From Escherichia coli O127:H6 str. E2348/69 (GTDB lineage Bacteria; Pseudomonadota; Gammaproteobacteria; Enterobacterales; Enterobacteriaceae): 64,000 nucleotides of DNA. Location: assembly GCF_000026545.1 (NCBI RefSeq), contig NC_011601.1; one strand, written 5' to 3'. The notes below the pieces were generated by a model. The model had not been told where the DNA came from and made no database searches. It worked only from the letters and a program-made list of their open reading frames with translations. A program made the translations under genes and the position numbers. Positions 11,788 through 13,560 of this stretch are shown in pieces; position 1 is the first letter of the stretch, and every line of letters begins with the position of its first letter.

Positions 11788-13560
11788 GTGCGATTATTTG
11801 CTCAATTAAGCTGGTATTTCCGTCGGGAATGGCGTCGCTATCTCGGGGCTGTCGCCTTGCTTGTCATTATCGCGATGCTGCAACTGGTTCCGCCAAAAGT
11901 GGTTGGTATTGTTGTCGATGGCGTGACAGAACAACACTTTACTACCGGGCAGATCCTGATGTGGATCGCCACCATGGTGCTGATTGCCGTTGTGGTTTAT
12001 CTCCTGCGTTACGTCTGGCGCGTATTGCTGTTTGGTGCGTCTTATCAACTGGCTGTTGAACTGCGTGAAGATTATTACCGCCAGCTAAGCCGGCAGCATC
12101 CTGAGTTTTACCTGCGTCATCGCACGGGTGACCTCATGGCTCGTGCGACCAATGACGTCGATCGCGTCGTGTTTGCCGCCGGAGAAGGGGTGCTGACGCT
12201 GGTGGATTCACTGGTAATGGGCTGCGCTGTGTTGATTATGATGTCTACGCAAATTAGCTGGCAGTTGACCTTATTTGCCCTGTTGCCGATGCCAGTGATG
12301 GCGATCATGATCAAGCGCAACGGCGATGCCTTGCATGAACGCTTTAAGCTGGCACAGGCGGCGTTTTCCAGTCTTAATGACCGCACCCAGGAAAGCCTCA
12401 CCAGTATTCGCATGATCAAAGCCTTTGGTCTGGAAGATCGTCAGTCGGCGTTATTTGCCGCGGATGCCGAAGATACCGGCAAAAAAAACATGCGGGTGGC
12501 GCGTATTGATGCTCGTTTCGACCCGACCATCTATATCGCGATTGGTATGGCGAACTTGCTGGCGATTGGCGGCGGTAGTTGGATGGTGGTACAGGGCAGT
12601 TTAACGCTGGGCCAGCTCACCAGTTTTATGATGTATTTAGGTCTGATGATTTGGCCAATGCTGGCGCTGGCATGGATGTTTAACATTGTGGAACGTGGCA
12701 GCGCGGCGTATAGCCGAATTCGTACCATGCTGGCCGAAGCGCCAGTCGTTATTGATGGTAGTGATAAGGTGCCAGAAGGTCGTGGTGAACTGGATGTGAA
12801 TATTCGCCAGTTTACGTATCCGCAGACTGACCATCCTGCGCTGGAAAACGTCAATTTCGCCCTGAAACCCGGTCAGATGGTAGGTATTTGCGGGCCGACT
12901 GGTTCCGGCAAAAGTACCCTGTTGTCGCTCATTCAGCGTCATTTCGACGTCAGCGAGGGGGATATCCGCTTTCATGATATTCCTCTGACGAAGTTACAAC
13001 TCGATAGCTGGCGTAGCCGCCTGGCGGTAGTTAGCCAGACACCGTTCCTTTTTTCCGACACCGTAGCGAACAACATCGCGTTGGGTTGCCCGAATGCCAC
13101 CCAGCAAGAGATTGAGCATGTCGCGCGGTTAGCCAGCGTGCATGACGATATTTTGCGTTTACCGCAAGGTTACGATACAGAAGTGGGCGAGCGCGGCGTG
13201 ATGCTTTCCGGTGGGCAAAAACAGCGTATCTCCATTGCTCGTGCGTTATTAGTCAACGCGGAAATCCTCATCCTTGATGATGCGCTTTCGGCAGTAGACG
13301 GACGCACAGAGCACCAGATCCTGCATAACCTGCGTCAGTGGGGGCAGGGAAGAACGGTAATCATCAGTGCCCATCGCCTTTCTGCACTGACGGAAGCCAG
13401 TGAAATTATTGTGATGCAGCACGGACATATCGCCCAGTGTGGCAATCATGATGAGCTGGCGCAACAAAGTGGCTGGTATCGCGATATGTATCGCTATCAA
13501 CAACTGGAGGCGGCGCTCGACGACGCTCCGGAAATTCGCGAGGAGGCCATCGATGCGTAG
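11788..13560 (+). CDS. mdlA: ABC transporter fused permease/ATPase MdlA
   Basis: 590-aa ORF (GTG start) with N-terminal transmembrane domain and C-terminal ABC ATPase (Walker [10 protein letters not shown], signature LSGGQKQR). Confidence 0.93.

Follow-up and report, generated by a model that had tools for sequence, protein, structure and literature searches.

The window that we analysed is a stretch of 64,000 nucleotides corresponding to positions 416001 to 480000 of the chromosome of Escherichia coli O127:H6 E2348/69, for which the RefSeq annotation was taken from the identical record NZ_LT827011.1. Its genes follow the order known for this region (clpX-lon ... mdlAB ... acrAB ... dnaX-ybaB-recR ... 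hemH-aes ... copA-glsA-ybaT-cueR ... ybbJ-qmcA), and the 3.7-kb stretch around the mdlA/mdlB junction matches this strain with 100% identity and is present in 5423 of the 5426 complete E. coli genomes. Each gene junction was checked against the raw sequence, our own translation of all annotated CDSs and the RefSeq annotation; on translation, the annotated CDSs of the window are open frames with a single terminal stop each, with the exception of three annotated pseudogenes.

Five RNA elements score above the Rfam gathering score, all of them expected for this region of E. coli: sraA (1625-1721, minus strand) between clpX and lon, the SRP RNA (20931-21027, plus strand), the dnaX frameshift element (37833-37897, plus strand), naRNA4 (45820-45897, plus strand) after gsk, and sroB, or ChiX (51574-51657, plus strand), between ybaK and ybaP. 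Furthermore, the window carries an ISEc13 (IS4-like) transposase gene (19058-20431, plus strand) between ybaY and an MGMT-family gene, and a frameshifted maa pseudogene (maltose O-acetyltransferase; 23842-24394, minus strand) with 7 stops in its translated annotated span. In the case of hupB (4338-4628, plus strand), the RefSeq start is a non-canonical ATA at 4338, while the usual 90-residue frame begins with the GTG at 4356; the longer version seems to be a quirk of the annotation.

The sequence-only reading of this DNA had listed five tight junctions, and for all of them the sequence and the RefSeq annotation agree with it. On the plus strand, mdlA (11788-13560) and mdlB (13553-15334) share the 8 nt ATGCGTAG at 13553-13560, in which the mdlB ATG occupies 13553-13555 and the mdlA TAG 13558-13560. 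On the same strand, ybaB (38553-38882) and recR (38882-39487) meet in the sequence TGATG (38880-38884), where the last base of the ybaB TGA (38880-38882) is also the first base of the recR start, so that the single position 38882 is shared. On the minus strand, qmcA (62307-63224) and ybbJ (61852-62310) overlap by the 4 nt ATGA at 62307-62310, and a second in-frame ATG follows immediately (ATGATG). The genes glsA and ybaT (junction at 56692-56699, plus strand) are separated by 2 nt, the glsA TGA (56692-56694) being followed by the spacer TC and by the ybaT ATG from 56697, which again is succeeded by a second ATG. Finally, hemH (42428-43390, plus strand) and aes (43387-44346, minus strand) are convergent and overlap by 4 nt at their 3' ends (43387-43390), where CTAA contains both the hemH TAA (43388-43390) and, as the complement of 43387-43389, the aes TAG.

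In addition, we could notice three junctions that the sequence-only reading does not mention: a 4-nt ATGA overlap at 59527-59530 on the minus strand between two hypothetical genes (upstream 59527-59949, downstream 59324-59530), a 4-nt overlap at 58114-58117 between a pseudogene remnant and cueR, and the convergent, abutting ends of cueR and a pseudogene, with no gap between 58521 and 58522. The last of these borders a strain-specific insert (58522-61749) between cueR and ybbJ, which contains a frameshifted pseudogene, the two small hypothetical genes with the 4-nt overlap, a protein of 338 residues that carries a YadA-type membrane anchor (Pfam E = 7e-12), and an open reading frame of 120 residues to which no family could be assigned. 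In MG1655, cueR and ybbJ are given as immediate convergent neighbours, and the insert is therefore absent there. Two consecutive ATG codons at the start of a gene occur not only in ybbJ (62305-62310, minus strand) and ybaT (56697-56702, plus strand), but also in the hypothetical gene at 59527-59949 (59944-59949, minus strand) and in ppiD (4820-4825, plus strand).

The stop-to-start spacings of the four co-directional pairs are -8 nt for mdlA/mdlB, -1 nt for ybaB/recR, -4 nt for qmcA/ybbJ and +2 nt for glsA/ybaT, and all co-directional overlaps of the window belong to the -4, -1 or -8 class. The -4 spacing (NTGA) is by far the most frequent co-directional spacing in bacteria and archaea, and the -1 (TGATG or TAATG) and -8 (NTGNNTGA-like) spacings are likewise enriched in prokaryotes (PMC12548453). 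All four pairs also fall within the range of -8 to +10 nt that has been treated as predictive of coupling and in which E. coli gene pairs show a 4.5-fold enrichment for subunits of complexes (PMC10666635). The E. coli genome holds 820 pairs at this distance, compared with about 1630 whose spacing exceeds 20 nt (PMC10666635); with 6 of its 37 co-directional pairs (16%) in the range, the window shows no excess of tight junctions over the E. coli average. As a class, then, these junctions are not a product of chance but represent textbook operon packing.

Conservation of the mdlA/mdlB junction

The mdlB start is preceded by the Shine-Dalgarno (SD) sequence GAGGAGG (13540-13546, plus strand), located in the final codons of mdlA (Glu-Glu-Ala), 6 nt 5' of the ATG, and its duplex with the anti-SD sequence (-11.8 kcal/mol) is the strongest among the 16 starts compared. 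A synonymous form of this heptamer would be GAAGAAGC.

A protein search with MdlB returned relatives that all share at least 87% identity and belong mostly to Citrobacter, a set too shallow for an analysis of conservation, and a scan of genomes was used instead. This single scan of species-representative genomes provided 80 loci, with protein identities of 84 to 99%, from Escherichia, Citrobacter, Enterobacter, Klebsiella, Raoultella, Kosakonia, Buttiauxella and others; at each locus, the mdlA frame was followed to its stop and the mdlB start was located. By this tracing, 79 of the 80 species have an overlap of exactly 8 nt, with the pattern ATG or GTG, NN, TAA or TAG. The mdlA stop within these overlaps is TAA in 42 species and TAG in the other 37; for mdlB, the start codon is ATG in 78 and GTG in 2 of the 80 species, at a constant spacing from the SD sequence. 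Within the latter, positions -11 to -9 (GGA) are invariant, and the exact heptamer GAGGAGG is found at -13 to -7 in 56 of 79 species, while the flanking columns hold only 0.1 to 0.7 bits (79 species). The C-terminal tail of MdlA, in whose codons the motif lies, is variable both in sequence and in length, with insertions and deletions (e.g., ...DEEPSEVTDA and ...ALDEEVVDA in other species).

The one apparent outlier, for which the tracing gave a 29-nt gap, proved to be an artefact, as the tracing had begun at a truncated match. The local sequence, ...GAGGAGGCGGTAAATGCGTAG, stands in the reading frame of a normal MdlA tail and retains the 8-nt motif, and a frameshift or an indel farther upstream in that assembly is likely. 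Among the other loci, a record labelled Chryseobacterium sp. 18061 (CACSKA010000001.1) carries mdlAB with an MdlB that is 88% identical to that of E. coli and with an enterobacterial junction; this record is probably mislabelled or contaminated.

Thus, an RNA-level motif is fixed within a drifting protein tail, at a constant distance from a fixed overlap, and in 79 to 80 of the 80 species the architecture of the junction is kept beyond what the coding of the protein requires. Such a pattern indicates selection for the mdlA/mdlB junction as such rather than for the protein.

Translation across the co-directional junctions

The sequence-only reading had taken the overlapping start and stop codons as indicating translational coupling. 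The facts of sequence on which it relied are correct, and the coupling that it deduced fits the known behaviour of genes spaced in this way, so that the claim is partly supported. Where a downstream start lies on or beside the upstream stop, the terminating ribosome is already at the next start; most likely, the ribosome that ends the upstream gene would reinitiate there, which would link how much of the second protein is made to how much is made of the first. Reporter experiments demonstrated such coupling by termination-reinitiation in four of five pairs of overlapping genes from E. coli, in which the region from -99 to +30 nt was sufficient, and removal of the SD sequence lowered reinitiation in four of the five tested pairs (PMC6728339). 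The genes bioB and bioF overlap and yet initiate independently (PMC6728339), which means that overlap alone is no proof of coupling. The argument is strengthened for mdlA/mdlB by the conservation of both overlap and SD sequence, and for ybaB/recR by the lack of a ribosome-binding site. Taken together, we infer that translational coupling is likely in all four pairs, and we regard it as probable, on the whole, that the window presents ordinary operon junctions, with termination-reinitiation in the co-directional pairs and antisense run-through at hemH/aes.

The four downstream genes differ in the strength of their SD sequences, and the contribution of reinitiation could differ accordingly among them. 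For mdlB, the strong, conserved SD sequence within mdlA would aid reinitiation as well as any fresh initiation. No SD sequence is recognizable upstream of recR (anti-SD pairing of -1.5 kcal/mol), the translation of which should therefore rely nearly entirely on ribosomes that come from ybaB. The genes ybbJ, with a weak SD sequence (-3.2 kcal/mol), and ybaT, with a moderate one (AAGGG, -4.9 kcal/mol), would represent intermediate cases, and the double ATG of ybbJ offers spacings of both -4 and -1 nt to the qmcA stop, each of which is a classic coupling arrangement.

As regards transcription, ybaB-recR is described as a single transcription unit (PMC9610160), the Term-seq tables of PMC7815308 place a primary 3' end after recR in MG1655, and cyuR-mdlAB are co-expressed (PMC11408624). 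For qmcA-ybbJ and glsA-ybaT, the literature on a shared mRNA offers statements of co-regulation at most, and the role of YbaT alongside GlsA is considered unclear (PMC6250119).

The most serious alternative is that each downstream gene recruits fresh ribosomes at its own site, the overlaps being a by-product of genome compaction and of easy mutational paths. According to this explanation, a start codon already contains all but one base of ATGA, and the -4 spacing may indeed be frequent because it is easily evolved (PMC12548453). The SD sequence of mdlB, being the strongest of the 16 starts, makes independent initiation a live rival for that gene, and the case of bioB/bioF provides a precedent for overlap without coupling. 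On the other hand, such an explanation sits poorly with the pairing values of recR and ybbJ, with the mdlA/mdlB overlap, which stays at 8 nt through changes of the stop and start codons in 79 to 80 species while nearby codons drift, and with the four of five reporter-tested pairs that proved to be coupled. We consider it a possible but distinctly less probable account of the junctions taken together, and independent initiation of recR in particular is unlikely.

The ybaB/recR junction was also compared with that of distant bacteria, represented by six RecR sequences with 49 to 58% identity (L083 to L088). A gene of the ybaB family lies directly upstream of recR in all six loci, with spacings of -1, -4, +2, +6, +15 and +25 nt, and the exact 1-nt overlap is not conserved across these loci (range, -4 to +25 nt). 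The two junctions with gaps of at least 15 nt (+15 and +25) have a clear GGAG, as would be expected of independent initiation; the junction at +6 shows only a weak SD match, the one at -4 pairs well with the anti-SD sequence (AAGGAUGGU, -8.1 kcal/mol), and among the six loci, those at -1 and +2 have no SD sequence. A sample of six, too small for a conclusion, hints at reinitiation at the tightest ybaB-recR junctions and at initiation of the usual kind where the gaps are wider.

A different form of coupling, in which the start region is locked in an RNA structure that the upstream ribosomes melt, allowing new 30S subunits to enter, is improbable. The minimum-energy folds do pair part of the mdlB SD sequence and the ybbJ ATGATG with the sequence immediately downstream, which would favour this mechanism. 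However, folding of the four junction regions is no more stable than that of shuffled sequence (z-scores of -0.78 to +0.86), none of the junctions gave a match to Rfam, and the 129 nt around the junction that were enough for coupling in the reporter experiments were held by their authors to argue against long-range structures (PMC6728339).

The sequence-only reading had allowed that corrected start codons might abolish the overlaps, and we found that correction of the starts removes none of them. Even though in-frame alternative starts exist at codon 11 of recR, codons 2 and 5 of ybbJ, codon 2 of ybaT and codons 25 and 31 of mdlB, it is most improbable that the true starts lie farther downstream and that the overlaps are annotation artefacts, given that the mdlB ATG or GTG occurs at the same position, with an SD sequence at a fixed distance, in 80 of 80 species; that RecR homologues (about 200 residues, 40 to 58% identity) align from residues 1 to 9, so that a start at codon 11 would cut into conserved sequence; that use of the second ATG of ybbJ or ybaT would still leave spacings of -1 and +5 nt; and that the hemH/aes overlap depends on stop codons alone, which are unambiguous. 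The recR frame is closed by a stop 15 nt upstream and its next ATG is codon 11; the alignment speaks for the annotated start as that of the RecR family.

Transcription beyond the hemH and aes stop codons

For the convergent hemH/aes pair, the sequence-only reading had concluded that no room is left for a terminator between the two genes. This is literally true, as none fits there, but termination signals, a Rho region mapped in MG1655 and a candidate hairpin, lie inside the opposing gene. A consensus scan found no intrinsic terminator just beyond the stop of hemH or of aes. On the hemH strand, a sliding-fold analysis detected a GC-rich hairpin at 43413-43438, with 9 pairs, one U-U mismatch and a folding energy of -15.1 kcal/mol, followed by GUUUUCAUCAU; that is, the stem-loop is succeeded by a G and by UUUU (43440-43443). 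The hairpin begins 23 nt past the hemH stop, within the last codons of aes, and the 40-nt stretch around it belongs to the most stable 0.7% of the window. The simple terminator scan missed it because of the U-U mismatch in the stem. The element at 43413-43443 (plus strand) may thus be a candidate intrinsic terminator for hemH, but a weak one at best.

In MG1655, the Term-seq tables of PMC7815308, which cover three growth conditions, assign no 3' end to hemH or aes. Supplements 1 and 2 of the same source list a region of Rho termination that lies on the strand of hemH and antisense to aes, about 315 nt beyond the hemH stop codon according to the MG1655 hemH coordinates that we derived from its tables (Rho score of 4.07, p = 6e-10); this region comes from a bicyclomycin experiment in MG1655 and was mapped coarsely, in 800-nt windows. 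Moreover, hemH-aes is one of the 165 convergent excludons of MG1655 in the map obtained with ExcludonFinder, a list that also includes ybaA-pdeB and ybaY-ybaZ from this region (PMC12288877). Taken together, with no space between the genes for a transcript end, each transcript would run antisense into the other gene, and, by the MG1655 data, the hemH transcript is stopped inside aes mainly by Rho, possibly aided by the weak hairpin.

It could also be imagined that the overlap and the hairpin form a regulated antisense switch linking haem synthesis to Aes. If this were true, the transcripts made upon hemH induction would pass through aes and reduce the level of Aes, or the reverse would occur. 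The overlapping transcription is the only evidence in its favor, and we judge such a switch to be improbable.

Comparison with known systems

The junctions described here are correctly identified, ordinary and of an already known kind: ybaB/recR has been described in the same terms since 1989-1990, and hemH-aes appears in the excludon catalogue of 2025. The one new finding is how deeply the mdlA/mdlB junction is conserved across the Enterobacteriaceae, which makes it a clean natural case of selection on a junction and not on a protein. The practical value of these observations is small. Deletions or insertions in mdlA, ybaB, qmcA and glsA are to be expected to have polar effects downstream through translation, besides those through transcription, and a review on YbaB warns of such effects on recR (PMC9610160).

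The ybaB-recR (orf12-recR) junction of Mahdi and Lloyd (1989) and Yeung et al. (1990), as that review summarizes it (PMC9610160), is identical to the one found here in another E. coli strain. In the account that it cites from both studies, the ybaB stop and the recR start share one A, the last base of the former and the first of the latter, a ribosome-binding site before recR is lacking and coupling was deduced from this arrangement.

The co-directional pairs as a whole resemble trpB/trpA and the hyfH/I, astD/B, ydbH/ynbE and menD/H pairs of Huber et al. (2019) (PMC6728339) in their spacing classes, in the position of the SD sequence within the upstream gene and in their organization in operons. 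Different from the latter pairs, which were assessed with reporters and in which removal of the SD sequence matters in four of five cases, recR has no SD sequence at all, and coupling is deduced here from the arrangement of the genes. As is the case for coupled pairs, at least one pair of the window encodes a physical complex: QmcA is an SPFH/Band 7 protein, YbbJ carries an NfeD partner-binding domain, and PMC12478178 cites a cryo-EM structure of QmcA and YbbJ in complex. The joint function reported for QmcA-YbbJ, and suggested for MdlA-MdlB by the homologue SmdAB, would fit a rationale of matched synthesis.

RefSeq names MdlA and MdlB, which are tandem-encoded half-transporters, as members of the SmdA and SmdB families; SmdAB of Serratia marcescens is described, in the citation of Matsuo et al. 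(2008) given by PMC11408624, as a heterodimeric ABC exporter. In contrast with such a heterodimer, deletion of mdlB in E. coli leads to a phenotype unlike that of the mdlA deletion, and the authors suggest that MdlA may act alone (PMC11408624); this difference weakens the rationale of stoichiometry for the mdlA/mdlB pair.

As for the convergent excludons of the ExcludonFinder map (PMC12288877), hemH-aes is itself among those listed, and it is distinguished here by the fact that the coding regions also overlap, by 4 nt, which makes the overlap of the two transcripts obligatory.
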